Of a DNA stretch of 64,000 nucleotides, positions 1 through 22,690 are shown piece by piece. The stretch spans positions 32,001-96,000 of the forward strand of contig WJMJ01000018.1 in the NCBI GenBank assembly GCA_014728035.1, given 5' to 3'. The notes beneath the pieces were generated by a model, which searched no databases, had not been told where the DNA came from, and saw only the letters and a list, made by a program, of their open reading frames with translations. Position 1 is the stretch's first letter. The number at the start of each line of letters is the position of its first letter. Both the position numbers and the translations under genes were made by a program. Source of the DNA: Promethearchaeota archaeon (GTDB taxonomy: Archaea; Asgardarchaeota; Thorarchaeia; Thorarchaeales; Thorarchaeaceae).

Positions 1-1311
1 GCTCTGGTAGAATTAGGAGCTGATACAAACGTTTCAACTGATAGAAATCAGACTCCTCTTATGTTAGCTGCAGGACTAGGTAAGATGGATATAGCAGTTT
101 ATCTCCTAGAAAACGGAGCTGATCCCGCCATTGCTCGAGTTGATGGTTTTTCGGTGCTAATGGCAGCATGCCAAGGAAATCAGCTGAAACTAGCCAAAAT
201 CTTGGTTGAGCAATATAATTGTGATGTTAATACAATAGCTGATGATGGGTGGAGTGCTCTTTCCTATGCGATACAATATGCAGATGATAAATGTGTGCTG
301 TACCTGCTTGAGAACGGTGCAGAACCAAGATGGGAAAATGAATCGCAAAACGAATTGATCGAAAAAATTATTGAAAACGGAAATATTGAGATTATTGGAA
401 AAATCCTAGACACAGGAGCTAATATTGAAACAAGACTTCGTCGAGGATGGACCCCATTTATGGTAGCTGTTGAAAAAAGCTCCATTGAAACTGTTGAATA
501 TCTAATATCGAAAGGTGCAAATATAGACGCAACAACAAAAGAGGGATTCACTCCTATAATAATCGCCGCTGAGATGGGTCGAAAAGAAGTTGTTGATATC
601 TTGCTAGATAATGAAGCGAACTTCATGGCTAGCAGCACTGGCGGCTACACCAGTCTAATGGCAGCATCAGCTGGTGGATTGGTAGACTTTGTCAAGTTCT
701 TAATTGACAATAATGAAGAACCTACTTACTCGACAAGAAGCGGATGGACTCCTATTGCATTTGCGACGCAAAATGGACAAGTGGATGTCATCGAGATTCT
801 TATAGAAAAAGGAGCTGAAATCGACCCTCAAGATGACAAAGGATACACACCATTGTTGATAGCAATTCTTAAGGATGATGTCAAATGCGCTCGTAAACTA
901 ATTGAACTCGGTGCAAATTTGGAGATACCTGACAAAGAAGGATGGACACCTTTGATTAGTGCTGCATCAAGGGGATTAAAGGAAATCACAGATGTTCTTG
1001 TAGAAAAAGGAGCTGATACGAAATACCGAAGGCCAAATGGTTATGGCTTGTTAATGGCAGCGTCTGTGGGAGGTCTCACGGACCTTGTAAAACTTGCACT
1101 TGAAGAGGGCAGTGATATCAATGAGATTGATGGTGATAGTGTGACTGCGCTTATCTATGCAGCTGAAAACGGTAACCTCGACACTGTGAAATTTCTTATT
1201 GAACATGGTGCAGATCCGAAAATCACTGATAATCAAGGAAATAATGCCTTGGAATGTGCTCGGGCTGTAGGACAACCTGAAGTTATTGAGTTTCTTGAAG
1301 ATTATTATTGA
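1..1311 (+). CDS. Ankyrin-repeat protein (5' end runs off the window)
   Basis: About 13 tandem 33-aa repeats with G-x-T-P/A-L-x-x-A...G...v..Ll..GA consensus. Frame 1 is open from base 1 (ALVELGADTN...TPLMLAA), so the gene begins upstream of the window. Confidence 0.93.
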   Translation, partial: ALVELGADTNVSTDRNQTPLMLAAGLGKMDIAVYLLENGADPAIARVDGFSVLMAACQGNQLKLAKILVEQYNCDVNTIADDGWSALSYAIQYADDKCVLYLLENGAEPRWENESQNELIEKIIENGNIEIIGKILDTGANIETRLRRGWTPFMVAVEKSSIETVEYLISKGANIDATTKEGFTPIIIAAEMGRKEVVDILLDNEANFMASSTGGYTSLMAASAGGLVDFVKFLIDNNEEPTYSTRSGWTPIAFATQNGQVDVIEILIEKGAEIDPQDDKGYTPLLIAILKDDVKCARKLIELGANLEIPDKEGWTPLISAASRGLKEITDVLVEKGADTKYRRPNGYGLLMAASVGGLTDLVKLALEEGSDINEIDGDSVTALIYAAENGNLDTVKFLIEHGADPKITDNQGNNALECARAVGQPEVIEFLEDYY

Positions 1312-1352: not shown

Positions 1353-2876
1353 CTAATTCATCAATATTTGTGACGCCTCAAAAGCATAGTCTAATAGAAC
1401 TCCAGGAAAGATGAATAGAATAATTATAGCCAAAGTAGAGATTATCACAGCAAACAGTGGTATCCGTGGTAATTGCATCCTCTCCACAGGTTCATCTAAT
1501 TCTTCACTGAATATCCCTTCATCCATATAGGTAACTTTCAGGATTCGTAGGTAATAACCTAATGAGAATACTGAGTTAAGCAATCCAATAAGGGCAAGCC
1601 ACCAGAAACCAACTTCAACTGCACTCTGGAATAAAATCAATTTAGACCAGAATCCTGCAGTCAATGGCATACCCGCCAAGGATAATACTAAGATTGCAAG
1701 AGATGCTGCGGCAATAGGAGATTTTCTACTTAGCCCCTTCAAATCATCATATGTGACTTGTTTTCCAAGTCTGATAGTTATGGACCAGATTAAAATGAAT
1801 ATTCCAGTCTTCATAATCGCATGGATAAATGCATGAAAGAGCGCGGCTGAAGCACCAAATTCGGTTCCTGCAGCAATACCTATGAAAAGATAACCCATCA
1901 TAGCAATACTCGAATATGCAAGCATCTTCATGATATTTTGTTCGGAGAGAGCTAGTAAGTTTCCAATAATCATAGTCAGTATCGATACGATTACTAAAAG
2001 TGGCATCCATTCTAATCTAGCTGTGAACATACCTACCATAAGTATCTGAATCAGCGCTGCTATTCCAGCTTTCTTTGTTGCACCAGCAAGATATGCGGTA
2101 ATACTTCCATCTGCAGTGCTGTACGTATCTGGCACCCACATCCACCCAGGAAATACTCCAATTTTGAAGCCAAAAGCTATGATGAAGGTAATCAAGGCCA
2201 AAATGATTGCATATGCTGCTGCGGGTGATACTGAAGATTCAGCCCATATAATAGTAATAGTGGTACCAATTGCTGATAGAGAGGTGACTCCAGTAACACC
2301 AATGATGATAGCGATTCCAAATATTAGAAAAGTAGTCGACAACAATCCCATTACAAAATACTTTGTAGCACCATCAACAGCACCACGATGGGGACCTAAA
2401 GCTACAAGTATGTATGTTGGTGTTGACATTAGTTCCCATGCAATGAAAAGAGCAACAATATCGGTTGCCATAACAACCCATATAGCTCCAGCAAATGACA
2501 TCAGCAAGAGGAAATTATAGGGACCTTTGTCCCCTCCAAATAATGTTGAAGACATCAAGACAAAAACAGCCACGACAAGAATCATGACTATGAAGAAATC
2601 AGAAAATGTGTTTCTTACAAATAGACCTCCAAAAGAAAAGCCATACGTTGCAGAATCGAAAATAAGGACCCAAATTCCAGATGTAATAACTCCAATAAAG
2701 CTGAGAGGTAAAGGATTCTTCTTCATTCCTACTAACAGAACTAGTAAAGAGAAACTCACTAGAGTCAGAGCTGGCAGAGACCCAACCCAATCAACTGGTA
2801 CTATTTGAAGAATGATATCACGCACTGGTGCTAAGACCAGTCTAACAGAATCCAAGATTGATGTGAATTGTAACAT
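1353..2876 (-). CDS. nuoN: Complex I-like antiporter subunit NuoN
   Basis: Polytopic membrane protein with WELMS..YIL, 'GATKYF', GFKIG..P..W.PD.Y, LAYSSIA and G.PLTAGF..K motifs; last gene of the nuo cluster. Confidence 0.9.
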   Translation of the reverse strand: MLQFTSILDSVRLVLAPVRDIILQIVPVDWVGSLPALTLVSFSLLVLLVGMKKNPLPLSFIGVITSGIWVLIFDSATYGFSFGGLFVRNTFSDFFIVMILVVAVFVLMSSTLFGGDKGPYNFLLLMSFAGAIWVVMATDIVALFIAWELMSTPTYILVALGPHRGAVDGATKYFVMGLLSTTFLIFGIAIIIGVTGVTSLSAIGTTITIIWAESSVSPAAAYAIILALITFIIAFGFKIGVFPGWMWVPDTYSTADGSITAYLAGATKKAGIAALIQILMVGMFTARLEWMPLLVIVSILTMIIGNLLALSEQNIMKMLAYSSIAMMGYLFIGIAAGTEFGASAALFHAFIHAIMKTGIFILIWSITIRLGKQVTYDDLKGLSRKSPIAAASLAILVLSLAGMPLTAGFWSKLILFQSAVEVGFWWLALIGLLNSVFSLGYYLRILKVTYMDEGIFSEELDEPVERMQLPRIPLFAVIISTLAIIILFIFPGVLLDYAFEASQILMN

Positions 2877-4393
2877 TATGGAACACCTCCAACTATGAAG
2901 TCTGCTGATGCACGTATCAAATCCAGAATAAGATCAGGCCAGACTCCAAGGAGAATAACAGGAATTAACATGATTATAGGAGCAATTAGATCAGACCATG
3001 GAGCATCTTCAACGTCTTTTTCAGGGTCAGGTTCACTGAAGACTATTCGATTCAGTGTCCATAGTAAATAACCTACAGTGAGAAATATTCCGAATGCAAT
3101 CACTGGCGCCCAGATATATACTACTACTGATCCAAATATGATCAAGGCCTCTGCAACAAACCCACTAAGTCCAGGCAAACCAAATGCTGCAAATGATGCG
3201 AGTATTAGAACTGCGGACATCTTCGGTGCCTTTGTCATAAGACCTTGAATATCAGGAATCTCCCGTGTTCCAGCTGCATATTTCAATTGTCCCGCCATAA
3301 TGAACATGACTGAGATAATGACTCCATGAGACACCATCATGAAGACAGCTCCTTGGATTGCTAGACTTGTTCCTACCGCAACTCCAAGTAGTACCCAAGA
3401 CATATGATTGATGGAAGTATAAGCTACCATGGATTTCATATCGGTCTGAGCTAGTGCAGTGAATGCAGCATAGATGCAAGTGAAAATAGCAAGAATTGCA
3501 AATGGAATGCTTAGCTGTACAAATGCATCTGGTATAAGCCAGAGACCCAATCGAATGAAGCCATACCCACCCATTTTCAACAATATTCCCGCAAGGATAA
3601 CAGAGCCAGGTGTGGGTGCTTTCACATGAGCCCAAGGAAGCCAATTGTGTAATGGGAAGATAGGTAGTTTCACTCCTGCACCCATAAAGACGGCTAATGC
3701 GAATCCAATCTGGATATCGATGGGGAGACCCATTTCTCTTAGTAATAGCATATTGAACGTGTGAGGAGTTGAAACAAAGAACAGGACAAAGAATCCAACC
3801 AACATCACTGCAGAGCCAAGATGTGTGTAGATGAAGAACTTGATAGCTGCATGTTGACTACCTTCTTCACCCCATCTACCAATGATAAAGAACATGGGAA
3901 TCAGAACGAGTTCCCAGAAGATGAAGAACCCAATCAAGTCCAAGGACATAAAGACTCCAAGTAGACCTGACTGTAGAAGAAGTATAAGAGCATAGTAGAG
4001 GCCTTTTGATTTGTTAATGTGATTAGAACTGATTGTTGCTATGAGAACTACAAGATTTGCTAAGATGACCATAGCAACTGAGATTCCATCAACTCCCAAA
4101 TACAACTGAAAGGAGATATCAGAAGAGCCTGTGGTAAGAGTTGCAAACGTGTACTCCCATAAGAATTGCATTCCAGCAAAGGGGTCTCCTTCTGCGTAAG
4201 TTGTGGTAATGGAGAATGCTAGGACAAAAGCTAGCACCAGTTCAATTGATGTAATCAGAAGTGCTATGCCACGAGACCCCCTCGAACCTGCAAAGTATGC
4301 TATGATTGATCCCAGGATTGGTAAGACAACCATCAGTGGAAGGATGTCGTAAGGCAATAAACCCAGAATTGTTTGTACAATATCACTCTGCAT
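2876..4393 (-). CDS. nuoM: Complex I-like antiporter subunit NuoM
   Basis: LGVDGIS, FFIFWELVLIPMFFII..WG, AAIKFFIYT, VKLP.FPLH.WLP.AH..AP, LLKMGGYG and GLPG.SGFV.E motifs. Confidence 0.92.
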   Translation of the reverse strand: MQSDIVQTILGLLPYDILPLMVVLPILGSIIAYFAGSRGSRGIALLITSIELVLAFVLAFSITTTYAEGDPFAGMQFLWEYTFATLTTGSSDISFQLYLGVDGISVAMVILANLVVLIATISSNHINKSKGLYYALILLLQSGLLGVFMSLDLIGFFIFWELVLIPMFFIIGRWGEEGSQHAAIKFFIYTHLGSAVMLVGFFVLFFVSTPHTFNMLLLREMGLPIDIQIGFALAVFMGAGVKLPIFPLHNWLPWAHVKAPTPGSVILAGILLKMGGYGFIRLGLWLIPDAFVQLSIPFAILAIFTCIYAAFTALAQTDMKSMVAYTSINHMSWVLLGVAVGTSLAIQGAVFMMVSHGVIISVMFIMAGQLKYAAGTREIPDIQGLMTKAPKMSAVLILASFAAFGLPGLSGFVAEALIIFGSVVVYIWAPVIAFGIFLTVGYLLWTLNRIVFSEPDPEKDVEDAPWSDLIAPIIMLIPVILLGVWPDLILDLIRASADFIVGGVP

Positions 4394-6586
4394 TTAGATT
4401 ACCCCCAGCCAAATCAATGCGATAATCGCCATGAGTCCAACACCAAAGATAATGACACTAACATAGTCATTCACTCGACCTGTTTGTGCATGTTGACTGA
4501 ACTCAGATGCTTCCACGCTACGGCTCGATACGCCCTCGGCAAACCCATCAACCACATTATCATCAAACCACCGTATCCTTCTAGACAGTCCAATAGCTAG
4601 ATCCGCTGAACGGAAATCAATTCCATCGATAATTCGATTGTCAATTCTTTCTCTCCACCAATTAGCAAAGGAAAGGATTTTTTTCAATATCCAATAGTAT
4701 GCTTCGTTGATATACCAACGATGACGTAGAAAGTTGTAAACTCTTCTTCTAAAGCCATTTTCAGGAATGACTGCATTTGGTGTGTCAGCACCCTTGATGT
4801 AAATAAGATACCCAGGAATACCACCCAGAGCTAATGCACCAAGCGTGATAGTAAACGGTACAAGGCCCGGCATGGTCAATTTAACCAATATCATCTCAAG
4901 CATCGTTTCAGACCATAGAGATGCTGTTAGTACCCCTTCCTCCAATACAATACCTTGAACAAACGGATAGACTGTAAATGCAACGACAGTAAATGCTGCA
5001 AGAATATACAGTGGAACCATCATTGCTGGTCCTGGGTCATGTGGCGTTTGATGGTGGCTTTCTTCTTGTTCATCATCTGCTGAATCTTCCTGTTCAAAGT
5101 TGGAAGAGCCATAGAATGTCATACCCATGAGTCGGAAACTATAGAATATCGTACATGCAGCAGCAACGACTGCAAATGCAAAGAGAACCCATCCTAGTGT
5201 GTTATGTAGTGCAAGCTCGTAAGTGTATTCAATAATAGAATCTTTTGACCAGAATCCTGAGAATGGGGGTAAACCAGAAAGAGCAAGGACCCCTATCCAC
5301 ATCACAATGAAGGTTTTCCGCATATGCTTTTTGAGACCTCCCATCTTGGTCATATATTTCGTATGAACCCCATGAATCACACCACCTGCTGCTAGAAACA
5401 GTAGAGCTTTGAATACCCCATGGCTGATAACATGAAGAATGCTTGAGAGATATGCATGTTCATAATGAGTCAATAGGCCACCTACACCAATAGCCAGCAT
5501 CATATATCCTAACTGACTCAAAGTCGAAAACGCAAGGACTTGTTTTAGCTCATTTGAAACCATACCCATAGTAGCAGTCATGAGTGCAGTAATAGCACCG
5601 ATAATAGCAACTACTGTAAAGAAGGGCAAGGCTGCTTCAAATCCAATAATCTGTAACGGGGCAAAAATCGATTCAGCATGACTTCCTCCTGCAGCTTCTA
5701 CCATGGTCACAAGAAACCTAGCGCTTATGTAGATACCAGCTTTTACCATTGTGGCTGCGTGAATCAATGCAGATACAGCAGTTGGTCCTGCCATAGCTTC
5801 GGGTAACCAGACCTGCAGAGGTGCTTGACCAGATTTTCCAATTGCGCCCATGAACAATAGTAAGAATGTAGGGACTAACATACCAGTAGATGCCATCACA
5901 CTCCACCAATGTTGGGCATCATGAGACATCTCGGTAAATGAAAAGGTTCCAGTAAAGACGAAGAGAAGAAGAATGCCTCCTAGCATGAATGCATCTCCAA
6001 TTCGAGTAACGATGAATGCTTTTGTTCCGCAATGTGTGTTGTATTCACCTTCGGTCTCAAAGTTCAGTAGTGGGTTATCAGAATCGATGTCTGAAGGGTC
6101 GGTTTCAGGAGGATTTCGTTTGTCATTCCAGAAACCAATGAGGCCGTAAGAACAGAAGCCCATTATCTCCCACCCAATAAAAGCGATAAGTAGGCTATCG
6201 CTGAGAACTAATGTAAGCATTCCACCACCAAAAGCAAGCATAAGAAAGAAGAATCTATCACGGTCCTCTTCATGCGCCATGTATTCAGTACTATATACAT
6301 AAATCAGAAAACATAATGTGCTTGCCAATATAGCCATGATGACTGATAGTGGATCTAGAAGAACTGAAAATTCTAAGTTCATAGATTCAATCCAAAGCCA
6401 AGATGTTGTGGTTGCAGGATTATTAATCTCAAATAGTAAGGACCAGCAAAAAGCCATAGCTATACCCATAATGATAGCGGGGGTCCAGTCACGTATTTTT
6501 TCACTGAATTTTCCAACAAGTGGAACTAGTAAAGATCCTGCTAAGGGTAATACAAGAATCAAGTAGTAGGGTAGTCCAAACAACAT
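4394..6586 (-). CDS. nuoL: Complex I-like antiporter subunit NuoL with extended transverse helix
   Basis: WE.MG.CSY.LIGFW, KAF..TRIGD, GKS.Q.PL..WLP.AM.GPT.VSALIHAATMV.AG, H..FKALLFL, GF.SKD, and C-terminal QTG.V..Y; GAGGTGA RBS overlaps the upstream stop. Confidence 0.95.
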   Translation of the reverse strand: MLFGLPYYLILVLPLAGSLLVPLVGKFSEKIRDWTPAIIMGIAMAFCWSLLFEINNPATTTSWLWIESMNLEFSVLLDPLSVIMAILASTLCFLIYVYSTEYMAHEEDRDRFFFLMLAFGGGMLTLVLSDSLLIAFIGWEIMGFCSYGLIGFWNDKRNPPETDPSDIDSDNPLLNFETEGEYNTHCGTKAFIVTRIGDAFMLGGILLLFVFTGTFSFTEMSHDAQHWWSVMASTGMLVPTFLLLFMGAIGKSGQAPLQVWLPEAMAGPTAVSALIHAATMVKAGIYISARFLVTMVEAAGGSHAESIFAPLQIIGFEAALPFFTVVAIIGAITALMTATMGMVSNELKQVLAFSTLSQLGYMMLAIGVGGLLTHYEHAYLSSILHVISHGVFKALLFLAAGGVIHGVHTKYMTKMGGLKKHMRKTFIVMWIGVLALSGLPPFSGFWSKDSIIEYTYELALHNTLGWVLFAFAVVAAACTIFYSFRLMGMTFYGSSNFEQEDSADDEQEESHHQTPHDPGPAMMVPLYILAAFTVVAFTVYPFVQGIVLEEGVLTASLWSETMLEMILVKLTMPGLVPFTITLGALALGGIPGYLIYIKGADTPNAVIPENGFRRRVYNFLRHRWYINEAYYWILKKILSFANWWRERIDNRIIDGIDFRSADLAIGLSRRIRWFDDNVVDGFAEGVSSRSVEASEFSQHAQTGRVNDYVSVIIFGVGLMAIIALIWLGVI

Positions 6587-6597
6587 ATCATATCACC

Positions 6598-8109
6598 TCA
6601 TGGGAGAAGTCCACTTACTCCTTCTAAACCGCTGAGTATAATATCCAAGGCTACACCTGGGAAGATTCCAAAGAACACAATTAACACTCCTAGGATAATC
6701 ATTGGAATGACCATGGAACGGGGTGCTTCAGATACATCTTCAAGTTCATCTGGGTGAGTTCCTAGAAATACCCTCCAGAGAAACCGCAACATGTATCCAG
6801 CACTAACAATCGAACTTGAAACAGCTAAAACGCTAAGAATGAGAAACTCAGGCCGAAGAATTCCAGAAGATGAGACCAGAGCTGCATCAAAACCACCTAG
6901 AAACATCATCCATTCACTTGCGAACCCGGATAATGGAGGACTACCAGCAATACTCATAGCTCCAATAGCTGCTGTAAAAGCAGTGAGGGGCATCTTATTT
7001 GATAGCCCACCCATCTTTGTAATATCACGAAGTCCAGTCTGGTGAATGACAGCTCCAGCAGCCATAAACAATAGTCCTTTGGAGAAAGCATGATTGATTA
7101 GATGGAATAATCCGCCACTAACACCCATAGTTGTATAGACTCCTAGTGAAAACAAAATGTATCCCATCTGTGAAACAGAAGAATAGGCTAGAAGACGCTT
7201 GATATCAATCTGAGCCAAAGCCATGAAACCACCATAGAACATGGTCAGCACTCCGATAACTGCAATCCAAAATGAAAGTGCTGCTGCTGCAGGACCAAGT
7301 AAAATCGACCCGAAACGAACAAGTGCATATGCACCAGTTTCAATCATAGCTCCTGAAAGAAGAACAGAAATTGGAGTTGGAGCTTCAGCATGTACAGGTG
7401 GTAACCACCAATGAATGGGAAAGACTGCCATTTTGACTAAGAATCCAGCAGCCATAAGTATGAAGATAATCTTGAGCAGGTCAGTAACTGCAGAACCAGC
7501 CAATGCAGTCTGAATAACTTGTAATTCAAAAGAGCCTGTGAGCATATAGAGGAAGCCAAAACCTACCAAAATGCACAGAGCGCCCGATTGAGTATATAAC
7601 CAGAACTTCATTGCGGTGCGCTTGCGAGTTTCAGGAAGTCCCCAGAAAAGTATCAGAAAGTAACTTGGAACAAGCATTATTTCCCAAGCGATAAAGAATT
7701 CGATGAGATTTGTTGCTAGAACCACCCACTGCATGCCCATTAGAAAGAAGAGTTGATTTGCAAAGAAAGTGGGTTTATTCTTCGTGTGATCAGTATATCC
7801 GACTGCATAAACCACTGATAGAAAACCAAGAACAACTATGGCAAATACAATAGGAAATGAAACTCCATCTAAGAATAGAGCAAATTCACCAAATACCGCA
7901 GACCACGTTGCAGCTTCTTTTGCAACCCCGCCCTCAATCATGACTCGATAAAATGGTAGAATCATCAATACCATCGAAGCAAATGAAAACCCAACTGCCA
8001 CTTTTCCAGCTGAAGTCTCTAATCGAGATTTGAGGAGATAGATTAACAGAGCTCCTACAAAGAGAACAGCAAGTGAGCTACCCATAAATGGAAAGTTCAC
8101 GAATTGCAC
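6598..8109 (-). CDS. Second NuoM/MrpD-like antiporter subunit (extra pump subunit, M')
   Basis: FFIAWE..LVPSYFLI..WG, AMKF, VKMA.FP.H.WLP..H.EAPTP.S and D.KR.LAYSS.SQMG motifs. Likely start is GTG 8109, overlapping the nuoI stop and preceded by GGAGGT (ORF track starts at 8133). Confidence 0.85.
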   Translation of the reverse strand: MQFVNFPFMGSSLAVLFVGALLIYLLKSRLETSAGKVAVGFSFASMVLMILPFYRVMIEGGVAKEAATWSAVFGEFALFLDGVSFPIVFAIVVLGFLSVVYAVGYTDHTKNKPTFFANQLFFLMGMQWVVLATNLIEFFIAWEIMLVPSYFLILFWGLPETRKRTAMKFWLYTQSGALCILVGFGFLYMLTGSFELQVIQTALAGSAVTDLLKIIFILMAAGFLVKMAVFPIHWWLPPVHAEAPTPISVLLSGAMIETGAYALVRFGSILLGPAAAALSFWIAVIGVLTMFYGGFMALAQIDIKRLLAYSSVSQMGYILFSLGVYTTMGVSGGLFHLINHAFSKGLLFMAAGAVIHQTGLRDITKMGGLSNKMPLTAFTAAIGAMSIAGSPPLSGFASEWMMFLGGFDAALVSSSGILRPEFLILSVLAVSSSIVSAGYMLRFLWRVFLGTHPDELEDVSEAPRSMVIPMIILGVLIVFFGIFPGVALDIILSGLEGVSGLLP

Positions 8110-8540
8110 TAGCGAAACCTCCGTCCTCGCCATTCTAAAGGTTCACGGTCAAGGGTGGTAATCTTATCTGGTCCATAGAGTAAATCTTCACGTTCTCCTT
8201 CGCTGATATCAACAACTTTCGTGTGATAGAGTGCTTCAAATCTACAAGCTTGAACACAGAGCCCACAGAATATACACCGGGTATAATCAAAGTACAATGC
8301 AGCATCTTTCTCATACTTTTGATCAGCTGTGTCAATTGATATAGCTACAACCGGACATGCACGAACACACTGTTTGCATGCTGTACAATTCTCTCTGACA
8401 TGAATGTGTCTACCACGAGTCCGTTCAGGATAGTCTCTATCTTCGAAGGGATAGAAGTAGGTGAAGGGTCTCTTGAAGATCTGTCTGAATACATTTTTAA
8501 GTATTTGAAATATATCACCTAGCGTTGAGAAGAATCCCAT
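8109..8540 (-). CDS. nuoI: Complex I-like 2x[4Fe-4S] subunit NuoI
   Basis: T..YP.E...P.R.RG.H followed by CxxCxxCxxxCP and CIFCGLCxxxC. ATG 8540 follows GGAGGT (the ORF-track start at 8648 lies inside nuoH). Confidence 0.92.
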   Translation of the reverse strand: MGFFSTLGDIFQILKNVFRQIFKRPFTYFYPFEDRDYPERTRGRHIHVRENCTACKQCVRACPVVAISIDTADQKYEKDAALYFDYTRCIFCGLCVQACRFEALYHTKVVDISEGEREDLLYGPDKITTLDREPLEWRGRRFR

Positions 8541-8545
8541 TATTT

Positions 8546-9676
8546 TCAACCTCCGAGAAGCAGCAATCCGGCTAATCCCGGAATATACACAATAGCAAGC
8601 ATTGCTAGCACGACATTGAGTATCGAAAGTGGTAGCAGATATTTCCAACAGTACTCTACAATCTGGTCAGGTCTCAATCGATAGAAAGATGAAGTGACAA
8701 CTATGTAGAGAAAGAAAACGATTAAAAATTTGATAATGAAGTTCATAGCTGGAGGAAGGAAAGGTAATCCAAATGACCCTCCAAAGAACAATGCAACCAT
8801 CATAGCACTGTATAGCATCTGTTCTGCAAATTCAGCAAAATAAGTCATAGTGAAATAAATTCCTGTAAACTCAGTTCTCCATCCAAAAATAATCTCTGAG
8901 TCAGCTACCGGTGAATCGAAGGGGAATGTTCCAACAGATGCGATAGAACTAACCATGAAAGTCACTAGGTTGATGGGGAGTAAAAGAACAAACCAGATAC
9001 TGTTCTGAGCTTGTGCTATACCCATTAAGCTTAGAGACCCAGCCAACATTGCAGGACCTACTGACGAGATTATCATGGGAATCTCCGCAGCAAATTGATT
9101 GTTTGCTGCTCTAAAACCCCCAATGAGAGAATATTTCGATCCGGATACCCAACCTGCTAAGAGTGCAATTACTGGTACTGCAGTTAGAAAGGCAAAGATT
9201 AGAACAAGACTAACACTGAGGTCGGCAATAAACCAAGTTGGAGACCAAGGTATGAATGCAAATGGTAGTAGAACTATCACTAATAGCAAACACGGAAGAA
9301 ATCTGAACATCCAGCGTTTTGCCTTGTCAGGGATAATGGTCTCTTTTGAAACCAGCTTGATTGCATCTGCGAACAACTGGAATCCTCCAAATTTACCAAT
9401 ATGAAATGGTCCTCGTCTGTCTTGTATCCGCCCCCACATTTTCCGGGTGAACCAGACAGAAAAAATAATTCCCAGTACAATAAATACGAGACCAGGAAAG
9501 AGTATGGCCCTGAAAAGAAACCAAAAGTTATCAATGACTGCTGCCCAAGCAAATACAAAGATTCCCCAGATGCCATTGAAGACCCAGACAATGATTCCGT
9601 GTAACCACATAATGACATCATATAGCCAAGTTGGAATGCCTGCAAGCCATTGAAAGAAATCTATCTGTAACATCAT
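8546..9676 (-). CDS. nuoH: Complex I-like subunit NuoH
   Basis: RK..GRIQ.R.GP...G..G..Q..ADAIKL..KE, SKYSL.GG.R, PFD.P.A.SE and R.RPDQ....W motifs; start after GGAGTG. Confidence 0.93.
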   Translation of the reverse strand: MMLQIDFFQWLAGIPTWLYDVIMWLHGIIVWVFNGIWGIFVFAWAAVIDNFWFLFRAILFPGLVFIVLGIIFSVWFTRKMWGRIQDRRGPFHIGKFGGFQLFADAIKLVSKETIIPDKAKRWMFRFLPCLLLVIVLLPFAFIPWSPTWFIADLSVSLVLIFAFLTAVPVIALLAGWVSGSKYSLIGGFRAANNQFAAEIPMIISSVGPAMLAGSLSLMGIAQAQNSIWFVLLLPINLVTFMVSSIASVGTFPFDSPVADSEIIFGWRTEFTGIYFTMTYFAEFAEQMLYSAMMVALFFGGSFGLPFLPPAMNFIIKFLIVFFLYIVVTSSFYRLRPDQIVEYCWKYLLPLSILNVVLAMLAIVYIPGLAGLLLLGG

Positions 9677-9684
9677 AATCACTC

Positions 9685-10818
9685 CTATCTGTCCCACCAA
9701 CCTGGGTATGGATCTAAACTTCCGAATATCACAATGAAATCAGCAAACTTGTTTCCAGGAACAAGATGCTTCAACGAATAATATGAGTTGAAACAAGGGC
9801 CTCGTATTTTTGCTCGATAGGGTGTTTGTGATTTATTCATTGTGCGAAGATACAGAGAAGTAATACCACGAGTACCTTCCACACGTCCATACGCTTCTCC
9901 TTCTGGAAGACGATTTGCTTTTCCACGTGCTTTGGGGTTGTATATCTCACCCTCTGGAAGGAGTGGAAGTAGTTGACGAATAATCTCTACCGAGGTTTCG
10001 ATTTCCTTGAATCTCTGGACCATCCGATCATAAGAATCACTTTCTCCAGGATGCTCCTTGTTAACATATGTTGGAACCTCCCAGTCCACCATGTCATAGG
10101 CTAAGTTCTCGTCAGGTGAATCTTTTCGAAGATCCATTGGAACACCACATGCACGGATATTTGGACCGCTTAATCCCCATCGCAGTGCTTGATTTGTGGT
10201 GAATTGTCCAATACCTCGAGTTCTTACTTTGAAGGTTGGACTTCGTAATAACATATCCCGAAATTTTGGCATCCGATCTTCTAACCGTTTCACTGCTCTA
10301 TTCAGTTTCTTTAGAAATTTATCAGTGAAATCATACTTGACTCCGCCAGGTGTATTGTAAGATACCGCATGTCGTGAGCCAGTTAATTCTTCAAAAGCAT
10401 CAAGGAAAAATTCTCGATCCACCCAGGGCCATAGAAGCATAGTGAATAAACCAAGTTCTGCTGCAAATTGCCCCCACCAAAATTGTAGACTATGAATTCG
10501 ACTAGCCTCCATCATGATAGTACGCATTACTTTTGCTCGTTCAGGAATGTCTATACCGGCTATTCGCTCTACAGCTGAAACATATGGATATTCTGCTAGA
10601 AACGCCTCTAGCATGCAAAGGCGTTCCATAATGAGCGCACCTTGTCTGAAATTCCGAAACTCAAGACACTTCTCTGCAGAACGATGGAAGTATCCAGCAT
10701 TGGGATCACATTCAACAATATAGTCCCCAACTAGTGTGAGTTTGGCTGCCCAACCATGAGCTGAAACGTGTTGAGGACCGAACCAGATCTCAGTAGCTTC
10801 TTCAAGTACGTCCTTCAC
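9685..10818 (-). CDS. nuoD: Complex I-like subunit NuoD (no NiFe site)
   Basis: GPQH...HG, GY.HR..EK, E.SRI.S, G.SGP..RA.G...DLRK, E..RG, PYR.KIR.P and C-terminal SLD......DR; both NiFe CxxC motifs are absent. Confidence 0.9.
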   Translation of the reverse strand: MKDVLEEATEIWFGPQHVSAHGWAAKLTLVGDYIVECDPNAGYFHRSAEKCLEFRNFRQGALIMERLCMLEAFLAEYPYVSAVERIAGIDIPERAKVMRTIMMEASRIHSLQFWWGQFAAELGLFTMLLWPWVDREFFLDAFEELTGSRHAVSYNTPGGVKYDFTDKFLKKLNRAVKRLEDRMPKFRDMLLRSPTFKVRTRGIGQFTTNQALRWGLSGPNIRACGVPMDLRKDSPDENLAYDMVDWEVPTYVNKEHPGESDSYDRMVQRFKEIETSVEIIRQLLPLLPEGEIYNPKARGKANRLPEGEAYGRVEGTRGITSLYLRTMNKSQTPYRAKIRGPCFNSYYSLKHLVPGNKFADFIVIFGSLDPYPGWWDR

Positions 10819-11336
10819 CTGTTAGCACCTCCATCTGATGTAGTTGATTTGACCTCAGTCTCTTCTAACCTACTTCTATCAGTCTTGAAACTCTTTCTTA
10901 AGGGGTACTTTCCCTCTAGTTCTTCTGGAAGTAACAATAATCGTAAATCAGGATGTCCTTCGAAATATACTCCAAACATCTCATGTGTTTCTCGCTCATG
11001 CCATTCCATTCCAGGAAAAATATCAGAAATACTTGGAATAGTTGGTGTATCTACTGGAAGAGGGACACGTATCTGGCATAGAACCTGATTTGAATGTGAC
11101 CAGAAATAATAGATAACTTCGAATCCTGAATCCTCCAGATCCACTCCAAGTATTGTTTCAGGAAAGAGGTCAGAGTACGCAGCATCTAACATCTTCACTA
11201 TATCAACGATGTATTCTGGTGAGGTATCAATTTGAACTGTCTGGAAGCCTGCGGTGCGAGCCTCAATCCCCTTGAATTTTTGTTTCAGCTCATGCACCAA
11301 TTGAGCTCCAGAAATTCCACCCTCAGGGTTAGACAC
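10815..11336 (-). CDS. nuoC: Complex I-like subunit NuoC
   Basis: PSI..IFPG..W.ERE..EMFG..F.GHPDLR.LLL......PLRK signature. Likely start is GTG 11336 after GGAGGA (ORF track 11384). Confidence 0.92.
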   Translation of the reverse strand: MSNPEGGISGAQLVHELKQKFKGIEARTAGFQTVQIDTSPEYIVDIVKMLDAAYSDLFPETILGVDLEDSGFEVIYYFWSHSNQVLCQIRVPLPVDTPTIPSISDIFPGMEWHERETHEMFGVYFEGHPDLRLLLLPEELEGKYPLRKSFKTDRSRLEETEVKSTTSDGGANR

Positions 11337-11649
11337 TTCGAGTTTCCTCCTGATGAATTGTTTGTCCAAGATCCACTGTTCCATACCGTCGATGATACAT
11401 AAGCATCAGAACCATTGCTAAAGCGGTATGAGCTGCTGCGATAGTGATGATGAGAATAGTTAGGCCTTGCCCAGTAAACGTGAATGGTGTATTATACAAT
11501 GCAAAGGCAATGAGAGCGATTGTTACACCATTGCCAATAATTTCAGCACCGATGAGTACACGAATGAGGTTTCGTTTAACCATCATTCCATACACACCTA
11601 ATCCTATCAGCATAAATGACAAGATCAGATACCATGACATTGGAATCAC
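11329..11649 (-). CDS. nuoK: Complex I-like subunit NuoK
   Basis: Three hydrophobic segments with G.YG....RNLI..LI..EI..NG, GQ and IAAA motifs. Confidence 0.88.
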   Translation of the reverse strand: MIPMSWYLILSFMLIGLGVYGMMVKRNLIRVLIGAEIIGNGVTIALIAFALYNTPFTFTGQGLTILIITIAAAHTALAMVLMLMYHRRYGTVDLGQTIHQEETRSV

Positions 11650-12260
11650 TCTTCATCATCTCCTTTAATCTCAGAGTACCCTGGATGAGTTACAGCTTCG
11701 ATTCCAAACTCTCCTTTGATAGGTTCTAGACGTTCAGCCTTTTCCATCTTCATAATTACCACAGCACCAACAAGAGCAGTCAGAATAATTAGCGCACTCA
11801 TCTGAATATAGATACCATGACCACCCCATAACCATTGAGCTAGACCCTCAAGACTCTGAGAGAGGTCTATATTCTCTATTGCAAAGCTTTCAGGCCATGG
11901 AAAGAGAAGAGCAAGAGTACCGGATAAGATCATCACAATAGTTGCAGTAAGAATGCCCAGTTGTTTTGCACGAGATGTTGGAAACACCTCCAATGTACTA
12001 TCTTGAGCTCGTGGCAATAGTAGAACAGCAAAAATAATCAATGCACTGATGCCGCCAGTATAGACTGCGATCTGCATCCCTGCAATGAATGGTGCTTCTA
12101 GGAGCAAATAGAAACCTGCAACAACTGACGCCATAATTCCGAAAAAGAATGCTGCATAAACAATATCTTCATGTTCCAATGCAAGATATGCAAGGATTAG
12201 CACTAAACCTGCAAGTAGCAAAAACTCAACTTGTTCAAAGAGGGTCTCAATTCCTTGCAT
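11646..12260 (-). CDS. nuoJ: Complex I-like subunit NuoJ
   Basis: VYAA...G.Y.LL.APF.A..QI.VY.GG...L..FA..L and L.ALVGAV motifs. Confidence 0.88.
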   Translation of the reverse strand: MQGIETLFEQVEFLLLAGLVLILAYLALEHEDIVYAAFFFGIMASVVAGFYLLLEAPFIAGMQIAVYTGGISALIIFAVLLLPRAQDSTLEVFPTSRAKQLGILTATIVMILSGTLALLFPWPESFAIENIDLSQSLEGLAQWLWGGHGIYIQMSALIILTALVGAVVIMKMEKAERLEPIKGEFGIEAVTHPGYSEIKGDDEE

Positions 12261-12710
12261 TTAGTCTACCTCCCTCTGCATAGATGCTTCACTTTCAGCT
12301 TTTGCTTTCCGATACAATTCAACCGTTTCTTTCCCTGAAAGAAATGTTTCTGGAAGCCTTCGTATTGCATACCAGATTCCGAACATGAAAATTGCAATAA
12401 AGATAATCGATTGCCAAACCGCAAATTCAGTAAGACGTAATGAGGAACTTGAAAGCAACCAGAGGAATGCTCCCAATACATCAACCACTAAGAACAGAAT
12501 TGTATAGGTAAGATAGTTATATGGAAAAGATATTCTAGCTGGACCAATGGGTTCCTCTCCACACTCATAGGTGGAAGTCTTTTCAGAATTCTGAAGTACA
12601 TGTGGCCGTAATACCCATGAAGCGAATAACATCACGATAACAAGAACCGCTGCTAGTAATCCCCAGACTAATACCGGAATGAAGTCTATGAAGAGCCTCA
12701 CTATTTCCAC
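12261..12710 (-). CDS. nuoA: Complex I-like subunit NuoA (with C-terminal extension)
   Basis: K.STYECG..P.G.A...F...Y....ILF..D signature; first gene of the operon. Confidence 0.9.
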   Translation of the reverse strand: MEIVRLFIDFIPVLVWGLLAAVLVIVMLFASWVLRPHVLQNSEKTSTYECGEEPIGPARISFPYNYLTYTILFLVVDVLGAFLWLLSSSSLRLTEFAVWQSIIFIAIFMFGIWYAIRRLPETFLSGKETVELYRKAKAESEASMQREVD

Positions 12711-13272: not shown

Positions 13273-14280
13273 CTATCTATCATTGTTCATTGGTGAGAAT
13301 TGTACAATTGCCCAAGTAACATGGGTAGGAATTGCAGGAAGCGCATCAATCTTAATCTCGAAGATTTCGCTAGATGCGGTTGGTTCAATAAACGAATCCT
13401 CCTCGAACAAAATAGAAGTCTCAAAAAATGATGCAGACATATCTTCAAGTCTATTTTTGAATCCAAATTCCAGCTCGTATTCCTCAAGGATTTCTGCGTT
13501 CTCATCTTCATTATCTGGAAAGAAATAGGTTAGAAAGTAAGCTACTCCATTAAGACACCTTTTCAGTTCCTTGAGAAATTCTTCACTTTGTGTGATGTTA
13601 GTTAGACCGAGATTAGTTGTGAAAACCCCAATTGATCTATCTTTGAAAGGCATTTTTTTAGCATCAAATGCAATCAGACTTACTTTGTCATAAAGTCCAA
13701 AATGTTCTAATCGTTCCTTATTTCTCTGAAGAATACTTGGACTGATATCACTCAGAATAACAGGATTATCCAGCTGTGAAAACATTTCTGCAAATCCACC
13801 CATCCCAGAAGCAATATCGATGATTACATCACTTTTGTCAGAGAGCAATTTTTTCAATTGTGCTTTTTTCTTCTGATACGCCAGATTATAAGAGTCAGTA
13901 TAAATCTCCACTTCAGACCGTATTTCCTCCGCTCGATCATAATCTCCTCTTTCATCAAGAATCATTGAACGTAGGAATTTATCTGCAGGATTCAAAGTTG
14001 ATAAATCACTCTGCATGAGTTTTTCTTCATACTCAGAATTGGTATCCAATGCCTTTGCGAGGTTACTTTGTACAACTCTCCAGAAATCAGCATCGTTTGA
14101 AACATCTAGAAGAAAGACAGCAATTCCATCTTTTACAAAATAATGAGTATCACATTCACTACAAGAAACCTCAGCCTCGATAATTCTGTTTTCTGTTTCG
14201 GTTTGGATACTCCATTCTAAATCATTATGGCACTGAGGGCAATAGAATAGTGTCTGAATGGATTTTAGCATGATTCTCAA
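13273..14280 (-). CDS. Class I SAM-dependent methyltransferase with N-terminal Trm112-like zinc-ribbon domain
   Basis: N-terminal CPQC..L......C.EC...Y.V.DGI (Trm112-like); IIDIASGMGG, SDIS and DAKKMPF.D.S methyltransferase motifs. Confidence 0.8.
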   Translation of the reverse strand: MRIMLKSIQTLFYCPQCHNDLEWSIQTETENRIIEAEVSCSECDTHYFVKDGIAVFLLDVSNDADFWRVVQSNLAKALDTNSEYEEKLMQSDLSTLNPADKFLRSMILDERGDYDRAEEIRSEVEIYTDSYNLAYQKKKAQLKKLLSDKSDVIIDIASGMGGFAEMFSQLDNPVILSDISPSILQRNKERLEHFGLYDKVSLIAFDAKKMPFKDRSIGVFTTNLGLTNITQSEEFLKELKRCLNGVAYFLTYFFPDNEDENAEILEEYELEFGFKNRLEDMSASFFETSILFEEDSFIEPTASSEIFEIKIDALPAIPTHVTWAIVQFSPMNNDR

Positions 14281-20565: not shown

Positions 20566-22506
20566 CTATGACAAGATACCTAACGCATCCTGATTTTCAT
20601 TCTTCATTTGCCAGTGAGTTGTTCCTGCTCTGATCTTATTCTGAAGAATCAGATGTGCTCGTATGAAATCTGAAGGCTTTGGCGGACAACCAGGTAGGTA
20701 AACATCAACTGGCACTACTTTATCTGGGGGAGTCATAAGTGAATATCCATCCCAAAATAGACCACCACTTGCAGCACATTGTCCAAAAGATATGACGAAT
20801 TTAGGCTCGGGCATTTGTTCGTAAATTCTTCTTAGACGGGGTGCCATCTTCTTCGTTAAACTACCCGATATCCACAGTACATCAGTCTGGCGAGGTCCAA
20901 ACAATGGAAGCATACCAAATCGTTCTACATCCCATCTGGATGCAACTCCAGCAGCACCATCAACCATACAACATCCAAGACCATATTGCACAGGCCATGG
21001 ACTATGAGCTCTCCCCCAGCGAAGAAGCCACTTTATTGGAGGTACGTTCTGAAACCACTTTAACAGAATCGGTGCAATCCTTCCAAATCCATTTCTAAGA
21101 AAATCAAAAGCAATCCACATGAAGTACTTTCCAATTCGAAGAATGAATGGAAGCCAATAAGCGAATATCTTCCCTGGATTCGATATTTCCTTTGGGTCAA
21201 ATTTCAATTTTGCACTTCGAATTCTGGCTAGTCTTTTCTTACCAAAGTATTCAGGAGCATAATTGGCAAACCATATTCCTGTAGAGTGGGCATGACCACC
21301 ATGCCGCTGTGCAATCTTGAAAATGACAAAACTCTGAGCCCAAGAAAGCATATAGAATCGTCTTCGTTCATCTTCCAAAAAATAACCCATCATCGTGACA
21401 CCTGCTTTAGATGTCACGTAACCATCCACACCAGCTTTAGCAGAGGCTTGTTCAAATTGAAAATCATCCAAGATTGCGTGAAGATTCTCAAGTGGAGCAA
21501 AGGCCTGACCAACAACGAGAGTGGGACCCGCCTTTTTGATCTTCATTGGATAGAAACGATCTTCCCATTCATGCTCCGCAACATGACGATCATAGATAGT
21601 TCCATGATATTCTTCAGTGACCTCACAAACAATTCGTAAACCAGCTTTGCGTTCATCCTCATTTCCATCAAAAGCAAATACAACAACACAGTGATGAACA
21701 GGGTAGGGGAAGGGTTCCTCCTCTTCCCATATCTTCTTCTTGAGATCAACATACTTGCTCTCTTTGAATTTGATTGTGTGAGGAATGGGAGCTTCTTCTA
21801 TTACCTTTTCAATAGCCATATTCATCAAATAATTTTCAGGAAAACTCACTACAATAGGGTCTATTGGAGTTAGAGGTTTACACTTCAGTTTAACCTTGGT
21901 AATTATTCCCAGAATTCCTTCTGTATCGCAAAATAGATCACGTTCTTTTGTCCTAACAATTTTTCCAGTAGGAAGAACAACTTCAAACTCAAGAACGCTG
22001 TCGTTAACAATACCGTATTTTAGTGAGCCAATACCATCTCCACCTTGTGCCACCCAGCCACCAATCGTAGCTGAAAGACCTGATGAGGGGTAGCATCTAA
22101 GATCGAGGTTTTGACGGTTTAGTTCATGTTGTAGATTTGCCCAAGATATACCAGGTTCTGTCCAGACCCATTCTTCTTCTGTATTGATTTCGAGAACGGC
22201 ATCCATCTCACGCATATCTACAATTATTCCCCCTTTCCGGGGAATAGCGCCTCCGTAGCCTGAGGTTCCTGCTCCCCGAGGTACTAATGGAATTTTCTCA
22301 TCATTAGCAAATTTGTAAAGAGCCTGCACCTCTCGAGGAGTTCTAGGACGCACTAACGCATCAGGGGTATTATTCATCAACCAGCCTACTTGTTTCGGAA
22401 GAGATCCGACATCTTGAGAATGGATTATAAGCTCGTGCTTTGCTGTAACTACACGACCTTGGAAAATCTCCAGAAGATTTTCAATCTGTTTATCCTTTAA
22501 TCCCAT
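20566..22506 (-). CDS. Fusion of a GlcD/D-lactate-dehydrogenase-like FAD oxidoreductase (FAD_binding_4 + FAD-oxidase_C) with C-terminal NuoB
   Basis: The N-terminal domain has PRGAGTS..GG..P, ATIGGW...GG.G..S.KYG and EG.LGIITK and ends at DP..I.NPGK. The C-terminal ~150 aa have W.R..S.WP...GL.CC, D.ERFG....PRQ.D, KMAP.LRR.YEQMPEPK.VI..G.CA.SGG.F and PVDVY.PGCPP.P, which identify NuoB. One uninterrupted frame. Confidence 0.93.
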   Translation of the reverse strand: MGLKDKQIENLLEIFQGRVVTAKHELIIHSQDVGSLPKQVGWLMNNTPDALVRPRTPREVQALYKFANDEKIPLVPRGAGTSGYGGAIPRKGGIIVDMREMDAVLEINTEEEWVWTEPGISWANLQHELNRQNLDLRCYPSSGLSATIGGWVAQGGDGIGSLKYGIVNDSVLEFEVVLPTGKIVRTKERDLFCDTEGILGIITKVKLKCKPLTPIDPIVVSFPENYLMNMAIEKVIEEAPIPHTIKFKESKYVDLKKKIWEEEEPFPYPVHHCVVVFAFDGNEDERKAGLRIVCEVTEEYHGTIYDRHVAEHEWEDRFYPMKIKKAGPTLVVGQAFAPLENLHAILDDFQFEQASAKAGVDGYVTSKAGVTMMGYFLEDERRRFYMLSWAQSFVIFKIAQRHGGHAHSTGIWFANYAPEYFGKKRLARIRSAKLKFDPKEISNPGKIFAYWLPFILRIGKYFMWIAFDFLRNGFGRIAPILLKWFQNVPPIKWLLRWGRAHSPWPVQYGLGCCMVDGAAGVASRWDVERFGMLPLFGPRQTDVLWISGSLTKKMAPRLRRIYEQMPEPKFVISFGQCAASGGLFWDGYSLMTPPDKVVPVDVYLPGCPPKPSDFIRAHLILQNKIRAGTTHWQMKNENQDALGILS

Positions 22507-22690
22507 TAGCAAACCTCTGAGGAGACTCTATTGCTTAGGAACAAACAGACCGATTTCATACATAAAAAGATAGCGAGTGATAAAAAAGGAACATGACAGA
22601 TAATTCCTCTTTCGGATACGTTAAAGATATTAGATGTGGTAAAGGAATGAAAAGATGTTCTGCTTTGTGTAAAAAGATGGAGCGATTTGA

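Follow-up and report, generated by a model that had tools for sequence, protein, structure and literature searches.

Variants of complex I with a second NuoM subunit, known as 2M complex I, were reportedly described by Chadwick et al. in 2018, with the CI_1 enzyme of Nitrospira moscoviensis ('clade 3') and enzymes of heterotrophic marine Thaumarchaeota ('clade 2') as examples. These enzymes combine the second NuoM with a lengthened NuoL, and their proposed role is either to translocate one more proton or to push electrons backwards onto ferredoxin (PMC6606698). The hallmark of their NuoL is an insertion of 26 residues in the lateral helix (HL) (PMC9040806, PMC6606698). The clusters are often without NuoE and NuoF, and ferredoxin has been proposed as the partner, with one extra H+ moved per cycle (PMC9040806, PMC6606698, PMC7300363). 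Here we describe a nuo operon with four antiporter-like (pump) genes, M', L, M and N, in a stretch of 64,000 nucleotides from a Promethearchaeota archaeon of the Thorarchaeaceae (contig WJMJ01000018.1, positions 32,001 to 96,000 of the forward strand), which is called the window throughout. The source genome is a metagenome-assembled genome of 4.33 Mb and the window lies on its contig C130. The NuoL-like subunit of this operon was found to carry a duplicated motif and a net insertion of exactly 26 residues in its lateral helix.

The window shares two defining features with 2M complex I, namely an additional NuoM-type gene in the nuo cluster, which brings the pumps to four, and a NuoL lateral helix that is longer by about 26 residues. 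Four antiporter-like genes in place of three had been claimed in an original prediction made from the sequence of the window, and the open reading frames (ORFs) together with Pfam and NCBIfam matches confirmed M', L, M and N as four consecutive PF00361 genes on the minus strand. The same prediction pointed to the archaeal host, which by itself is no novelty, since 2M forms are known from Thaumarchaeota, from heterotrophic marine Thaumarchaeota and from Angelarchaeales (PMC7300363, PMC9038741). What differs from the published 2M enzymes is that the host is an Asgard archaeon (Thorarchaeota, with at least three further Asgard families), that the gene order is A-J-K-C-D-H-I-M'-L-M-N and that NuoB is fused to a GlcD-type flavoprotein. 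Unlike the products of a simple nuoM duplication, the two M subunits of the window are 32% identical and belong to different M-type clades. No published description of a four-pump Asgard complex was found in the literature searched, where the descriptions of 2M enzymes were taken via citing papers.

Three further groups of enzymes are relevant for comparison. Complex_I_3 of 'Ca. Manganitrophaceae' has five pumps and a further 26-residue HL unit that goes with the fifth pump (PMC9040806). It shares this ruler logic with the 117-residue spacers of the five-pump Asgard clusters L089 and L091 (the HL spacer is the set of residues aligned to residues 618-706 of the window L) but it is bacterial and MrpD-like subunits replace its NuoL, whereas the window has four pumps. 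Complex I-like enzymes of Asgard archaea have been described in the literature with HL and two antiporters, or with an arm shorter than that of complex I (PMC11291895; bioRxiv 10.1101/2024.07.04.601786). Group 4 [NiFe]-hydrogenases from Freyarchaeia/Atabeyarchaeia (PMC11291895) and Heimdallarchaeia (bioRxiv 10.1101/2024.07.04.601786) resemble the window in that their L bears a lateral helix and their middle subunit is of M' type, but they differ from it in their NiFe large subunit (CGIC and CFSC motifs), in having only two to three pumps and in spacers of 37 or 61-64 residues. Lastly, cyanobacterial NDH-1 and Fpo without FpoF consist, like the window, of 11 core subunits with no NuoEFG and with ferredoxin as the likely donor, but their pumps number three and only one HL unit is found at the aligned position. 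Among solved structures, NdhF1 of this group (6hum_F) matches the window L best (287 bits).

The four pump genes and the parts of L that concern the lateral helix are as follows, all on the minus strand.

6598..8133, minus strand: M', an antiporter-like subunit of M type and the fourth pump, 511 residues (PF00361, 243 bits; TIGR01972, 307 bits, cut-off 263.8)
4394..6586, minus strand: NuoL-like distal subunit (L), 730 residues (PF00662 and PF00361; TIGR01974, 474.8 bits, cut-off 407.5)
2876..4393, minus strand: canonical-type NuoM (M), 505 residues, with a Lys in transmembrane helix 8 (TM8) and a Glu in TM12 (TIGR01972, 439.6 bits)
1353..2876, minus strand: NuoN-like subunit (N), 507 residues (best NCBIfam match TIGR01770, 282.8 bits, which is under the cut-off of 332.6; groups with E. 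coli NuoN in the tree)
4481..4753, minus strand: HL region of L, residues 612-702 (predicted helices 612-621 and 624-683, then a low-confidence stretch)
4622..4645, minus strand: HL motif copy 1, IDNRIIDG, residues 648-655 (aligns with the lone I-E-x-x-x-I-D-x-F-N-Y unit of the three-pump L)
4544..4567, minus strand: HL motif copy 2, FDDNVVDG, residues 674-681 (26 residues past copy 1)
4400..4480, minus strand: TM16 anchor helix of L, residues 703-729 (predicted helix 703-729)

The start of M abuts the stop codon of L. With PF00662 and PF00361, a C-terminal lateral helix and the TM16 anchor, the window L has the features of the NuoL/ND5/NdhF family. The distance between D654 and D680 in its lateral helix is 26 residues and the QTG sequence follows downstream at residues 701-703, so that the predicted spacing of IDNRIIDG and FDDNVVDG before QTG is correct to the residue. 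In an alignment of related genomes, both motifs were observed to be kept in 44 orthologous L proteins with no insertion or deletion between them. D654 and G655 are invariant in these orthologs and D649, I653, F674, D675, D676, D680 and G681 are conserved in at least 90%. When the HL region served as query in a word-based search for homologs, all matches were Thorarchaeota proteins. The length of L varies from 684 to 844 residues among the orthologs, which is due to loops outside HL. An acidic, His-rich loop, EQEDSADDEQEESHHQTPHD, is strongly variable in length and accounts for this range, while a second insertion, NDKRNPPETDPSDIDSDNPLLNFETEGEY, is partly common to hydrogenase-type L proteins; the L residues concerned are at about 497-520 and 155-185.

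A three-pump L for comparison is found in the same genome, where a second complex I-like system is divided over two contigs. The locus L015 (C103:76959-81461) has the order A-B-C-D-H(-I) with a hydrogenase large subunit that contains CGIC and CFSC, and the locus L014 (C108:10456-16469) has the order J1-J2-K-L-M-N, in which NuoJ is split and L (671 residues) has a single HL unit. Combined, the two loci make up a [NiFe]-hydrogenase of group 4 whose arm has three pumps. In a MAFFT alignment with the window L, its L shows a gap of exactly 26 residues, with the RWYIN anchor on one side and the (Q/M)TG sequence on the other. The HMMER alignment with NdhF1 of T. elongatus (PDB 6hum_F) places the single unit of that protein on both units of the window L, as chain residues 596-612 match query residues 640-656 and chain residues 597-646 match query residues 667-716, with offsets of 44 and 70 and thus a difference of 26. 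The alignment of NuoL with three-pump sequences, which the prediction had named as a check, therefore gives a net insertion of exactly 26 residues against both the L of the same genome and the solved cyanobacterial NdhF1. Measured as HL spacers, the window L has 89 residues, the three-pump L of the same genome 63, an Elusimicrobia three-pump L 63 and E. coli NuoL 60. In addition, the HL profile was most similar to itself at an offset of 26, with a score of 20.7 compared to 9.3 +/- 4.0 for shuffled columns, a score that was reached in 2 of 300 shuffles.

The 26-residue insertion is best read as the tandem gain of one unit. MAFFT places D654-G655-I656-D657 of the window L opposite the D-P-L-N stretch of E. 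coli NuoL, which includes the P564-L565-N566 kink (the numbering match is taken from the alignment). This kink has been reported to be in contact with NuoM (PMC3274701). The presence of a second HL motif fits a second M-type neighbour. Models made with AlphaFold2 (AF2) give TM15 at 575-598 in the window L (predicted TM-score (pTM) 0.75), helices at 612-621 and 624-683, the low-confidence stretch and TM16 at 703-729. For the three-pump L (pTM 0.78) they give TM15 at 552-573, HL at 595-647 and TM16 at 649-670. The stretch between the end of TM15 and the start of TM16 is thus 104 residues in the window L versus 75 in the three-pump L. These are single-chain models with low confidence in HL and serve only to illustrate the outcome of the alignment.

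The length of the lateral helix in Asgard archaea was observed to track the number of pump genes across lineages. Spacers were measured on Asgard L subunits and the antiporter-like genes were counted in their neighbourhoods, with the following result.

Two pumps (L, N): HL spacer of 37 residues, in L098 (complete cluster) and L097 (contig ends directly after N)
Three pumps (K-L-M-N, hydrogenase type): HL spacer of 61-64 residues, in 15 loci, with the C108 L of the same genome among them
Four pumps: HL spacer of 89-91 residues, in the window, the Thorarchaeota loci and the genomes G400, G314 and G301
Five pumps: HL spacer of 117 residues, in the genomes G309 and G104

The increment per added pump is about 26-28 residues in the Asgard clusters. 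Two L proteins of genome G289, L095 (spacer 86) and L096 (spacer 61), are on short or truncated contigs and were left out of the pump-number scoring. In G301, L and M' are on one contig and two other pump genes on another, for a genome total of four. G309 has five adjacent pump genes, one of which is broken by a TAA codon. Its locus L091 (C151, 5573-13806) begins with A-B-C-D-H-I-J-K and continues with two genes of M' type, then L (738 residues, spacer 117), M and N; TAA splits the first of the two M'-type genes into ORFs of 149 and 347 residues. The repeat units are visible in such longer helices, and in L091 they read IELGIIDKFHY... / LETRGFNGLSY... / DFIDIRIVDGIANG. A tree of the L core that omits HL shows at least eight switches of spacer class, and closely related sister L proteins differ in spacer with 64 versus 117, 61 versus 86 and 64 versus 91 residues; the pump counts of these sister pairs are firm for the three- versus five-pump pair and less firm for the others. 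Three-pump controls outside Asgard archaea came from the Thermoproteota clusters sampled, probably of ammonia-oxidiser-like organisms, which have the order A-B-C-D-H-I-J-K-M-L-N, three pumps and a spacer of 65 residues.

Within the family, M' was called at E <= 1e-120 and was found in 54 of 86 genomes and 12 of 16 genera. It is located directly upstream of L in every checked case with both genes on one contig, and M' and the long-helix L co-occur as adjacent genes in 12 of the 16 genera. Neither of them was found in the remaining four genera (15 genomes), nine genomes of which have a hydrogenase-type L and six no L match. The few mismatches between M' and L that were checked are located at contig ends or in incomplete assemblies.

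The channel residues of M' are E151 (TM5), K234 (TM7), E265 (TM8), K352 (TM11) and E407 (TM12), all of which are invariant in 46 Thorarchaeota orthologs. TM8 has a glutamate (E265) where M, N and L carry lysine, K352 in TM11 is not found in canonical M, and E407 is the TM12 glutamate that is specific to M. The same E-K-E-K-E pattern is also present in the sole M of many Asgard three-pump hydrogenase arms. M' shares 37.6% identity with the M of the genome's own hydrogenase arm and 31.7% with the neighbouring M. Its scores on the MrpA and HyfB models are almost equal to its TIGR01972 score, and its best matches among solved structures are MrpA and the antiporter-like subunits of MBS and MBH (209-187 bits) ahead of E. 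coli NuoM (172 bits).

The trees, which are quick IQ-TREE runs with support from the Shimodaira-Hasegawa-like approximate likelihood ratio test (SH-aLRT; marked * below) only and with several long-branched reference rows, place M' inside a clade of M-type subunits that has strong support and also contains E. coli NuoM, the Thorarchaeota M, the hydrogenase-arm Ms and the M of an Elusimicrobia cluster. This clade leaves out NuoL, MrpA, HyfB, HyfD, NuoN, MrpD and HyfF. Within it, the canonical Ms of the Asgard four- and five-pump clusters and E. coli NuoM form a 100* clade, while the M' subunits of Thorarchaeota, G400 and G314 form a 98* clade of their own with the same internal branching as their canonical Ms. 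Because of this matching branching, the four-pump operon is older than the split of these Asgard families. The M' clade is nested in a grade of archaeal M-type subunits, which includes the sole M of the Thermoproteota A-B-C-D-H-I-J-K-M-L-N clusters. By sequence, M' thus falls into a broad M type of archaea, members of which are the sole M in hydrogenase arms and in the Thermoproteota K-M-L-N clusters.

The original prediction was right to treat M' as a real antiporter-like subunit, since it is conserved, embedded in the operon and of M type, and the tree that was proposed as a check separates it from MrpA, MrpD and HyfB. Its description as a second NuoM stands as far as the type is concerned (tree and TIGR01972) but not in the sense of a duplicate of the adjacent M; a recent tandem duplication of M is ruled out by the 31.7% identity and the separate clades. 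Likewise, the position of M' before L is correct, but this order is ordinary for archaeal clusters such as K-M-L-N. Relative to the bacterial L-M-N order it is M' that is extra, while relative to the archaeal K-M-L-N order it is the canonical M between L and N, and it may be that this canonical M is the added gene. A solitary M'-type gene, 45% identical, was also noticed on a Bathyarchaeia contig (L068, 1275-3369), where it is located by a HycI-type hydrogenase maturation protease and outside nuo-like clusters.

The remaining genes of the 11-gene minus-strand operon, which extends from 12710 to 1353 with neighbouring genes that overlap or are separated by at most 11 nucleotides, were assigned from ORFs and Pfam/NCBIfam matches as follows. 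The likely NuoB is listed with them.

12261..12710, minus strand: NuoA-like, 149 residues (PF00507, E 9e-20)
11646..12260, minus strand: NuoJ-like, 204 residues (PF00499, E 2e-20)
11329..11649, minus strand: NuoK-like, 106 residues (PF00420, E 4e-20)
10815..11384, minus strand: NuoC-like, 189 residues (PF00329, E 4e-31)
9685..10818, minus strand: NuoD-like, 377 residues, without the CxxC nickel-iron ligands (PF00346, E 3.5e-65)
8546..9700, minus strand: NuoH-like, 384 residues (PF00146, E 9e-86)
8109..8648, minus strand: NuoI-like, with 2x[4Fe-4S] (PF00037/PF12838; overlap of 25 nucleotides with the start of M')
20566..22512, minus strand: fusion of a GlcD-type flavin adenine dinucleotide (FAD) oxidase with NuoB, 648 residues (PF01565, PF02913 and PF01058)

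No NuoB and no NuoEFG are encoded in the nuo cluster (12710-1353). Group 4 [NiFe]-hydrogenases have two CxxC motifs in the large subunit and no C..C motif is present anywhere in the window NuoD, which is therefore not a [NiFe]-hydrogenase large subunit. The enzyme is also not an NADH dehydrogenase because it is without NuoEFG and its NuoB is a flavoprotein fusion. The GlcD-NuoB fusion is likely to be the NuoB of the four-pump complex. Its gene is directly upstream of nuoA in about 31 related Thorarchaeota loci but is 8 kb away in the window, and it is also not next to nuoA in the closest relative, L039. The fusion gene is arranged head-to-head with a gene for a 407-residue HdrD/GlcF-like protein with Fer4_8 and two CCG domains (22691-23914, plus strand).

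Two further genes flank the operon region, one for a UbiE/COQ5-type methyltransferase with an N-terminal zinc ribbon (13273-14280, minus strand) and one for a UbiA-family prenyltransferase (23916-25019, minus strand). These neighbours hint at a prenylated quinone as the electron acceptor. Directly after nuoN, a convergent gene (61-1311, plus strand) encodes a 416-residue protein with ankyrin-type repeats almost throughout, as judged by eye only.

From the genes and the subunit sequences we infer how such an enzyme may be assembled, in which order and stoichiometry its subunits may stand and what its donor and acceptor may be. The operon probably encodes a four-pump, 'headless' complex I-like ion pump, without NuoEFG and without a NiFe site in NuoD, in which M' is located under HL between the core of L and its anchor and one extra ion is moved per turnover. 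The membrane arm would consist of the four antiporter-like subunits L, M', M and N, with L in the distal position. HL would be built from repeated units of about 26 residues, each with a (D/E)-x3-(I/V)-D-G/x-(I/F)-(D/N) contact motif, while TM16 would anchor the proximal end. One unit beyond the three-pump enzymes would add about 39 Å (26 residues at 1.5 Å per residue), which is about the width of one subunit. The extended helix would then span three neighbours and not two, so that M' would be found between the core of L and the anchor, under the added unit. The simplest order of the arm would be L-M'-M-N because it retains the L/M' pairing of the hydrogenase arms together with the M/N pairing of canonical complex I.

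As M' has a full set of protonatable channel residues, in the swapped pattern E-K-E-K-E, it could move one further ion per turnover. Four antiporter-like channels and the E-channel would bring the yield from 4 to about 5 H+ per 2 e-, and the ion/electron ratio would be raised. Such a ratio could be paid for only if the donor is of low potential, as ferredoxin is, or if the enzyme runs in reverse. By standard potentials, the transfer from ferredoxin to menaquinone provides about 0.4 V, or about 77 kJ per 2 e-, which at 150-180 mV is enough for about 5 H+. The donors NADH and lactate fall short of this number, which is consistent with the absence of NuoEFG. To our knowledge, the assembly of the extra subunit and the raised H+/e- ratio are unproven for the published 2M enzymes too. 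As a whole, the interpretation in the original prediction is partly supported.

Other explanations have to be weighed against an M' that sits under the lengthened helix. M and M' could be alternative middle subunits for different ions or conditions, such that each complex has three pumps (L-M-N or L-M'-N) and the long helix is otherwise used. An M' of this type could fill the M position alone, as it does in the three-pump hydrogenase arms and the Thermoproteota K-M-L-N clusters, but the helix is 26 residues longer in every lineage with both Ms and of three-pump length where there is only one. Moreover, M and M' are strictly co-conserved in one tight operon and their trees branch alike for Thorarchaeota, G400 and G314, and alternative use of the two is quite improbable. 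M' could also be co-expressed but located outside the span of the helix, either distal to L, beside the arm or as a separate Mrp-like cation/proton exchanger. Its closer solved matches to MrpA and to the MBS and MBH subunits than to NuoM would suit such a placement, which we nevertheless regard as unlikely. The trees group M' with the M type and away from MrpA, MrpD and HyfB, a distal M' would need no longer helix, and no MrpB, C, E, F or G genes were found in or near the operon. The seven PF00361 genes of the genome are accounted for by the four of the operon and the three of the hydrogenase arm. In a complete Thorarchaeota chromosome, exactly four PF00361 genes are present and all are inside the four-pump cluster, and an independent Mrp system is therefore excluded. 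Mrp antiporters (CPA3) combine MrpA/MrpD with the small subunits MrpB, C, E, F and G and have no redox module. Placement of M' in such a system is ruled out by its position between nuoI and nuoL, by the PF00361 census and by its split from Sinorhizobium MrpA/MrpD in the tree.

The 26-residue repeat might also be a neutral or lineage-specific expansion of the helix that is unconnected to pump number. Its two copies in the window have just three identical residues in common, and there are exceptions to the ruler in Thermoproteota. Against this, the length of HL is fixed in the 44 orthologs while other loops of L differ by more than 100 residues, both motifs are under purifying selection, and the spacers are quantised (37, 63, 89 and 117) and change along with the number of pumps in sister pairs that are independent of one another; a neutral expansion thus seems highly improbable. 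Several observations do speak against an M' that is held under the lengthened helix and against a strict link between helix length and pump number. The single-chain AF2 models reach a per-residue confidence (pLDDT) of 30-58 in HL, and only the extents of helices were taken from them, not distances. An insertion of 26 residues would rotate the helix by about 80 degrees, and its amphipathic phase would be lost unless the helix kinks. The membership of M' in the complex is judged here from genes and comparison of sequences. Among the longer spacers, G104 has 117 residues but four adjacent pump genes, with a 631-residue orphan pump gene elsewhere, and a Thermoproteota genome of unknown completeness has a spacer of 89 but three PF00361 genes. 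Finally, a Fpo-like cluster of Thermoproteota (L110, G563:C1, 5943-16915) with the order B-CD-H-I-J-K-L-M-N, behind which an FpoF/FrhB-like protein that contains CBS domains is encoded, has an L spacer of 141 residues, in which four repeat units are clear, together with three adjacent pump genes and two remote ones 140 kb away.

It may be new that the two M subunits are of mixed origin and that a quantised helix ruler extends from two to five pumps. We tentatively regard the lateral helix of L as a modular ruler, with a unit of about 26-28 residues for each neighbouring pump that has repeatedly been gained and lost among close relatives (37, 63, 89, 117 and perhaps 141 residues), a reading that is plausible but falls somewhat short of probable. 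If it is true, the sequence of L alone would tell how many pumps any complex I-like enzyme has and thereby its H+/e- gearing, and the quinone-type complexes of Asgard archaea would have been geared up to four to five pumps by bringing together a hydrogenase-type M of archaea and an M of bacterial type. The correspondence of helix length with the number of pumps would provide a sequence-readable rule for the prediction of pump number in uncharacterised complex I-like enzymes, and closely related L subunits with different HL lengths form a natural series for structural studies of how the helix holds the arm.

The usual picture of Thorarchaeota is one of fermenters or acetogens whose chemiosmotic equipment is modest. 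A relative of complex I that is conserved, of quinone type and fitted with four pumps would imply a high-gear coupling site in these organisms, which could draw more energy from low-potential electrons or spend membrane potential in making them. Such a site would also bear on energy conservation in the Asgard archaea, the closest known relatives of eukaryotes.

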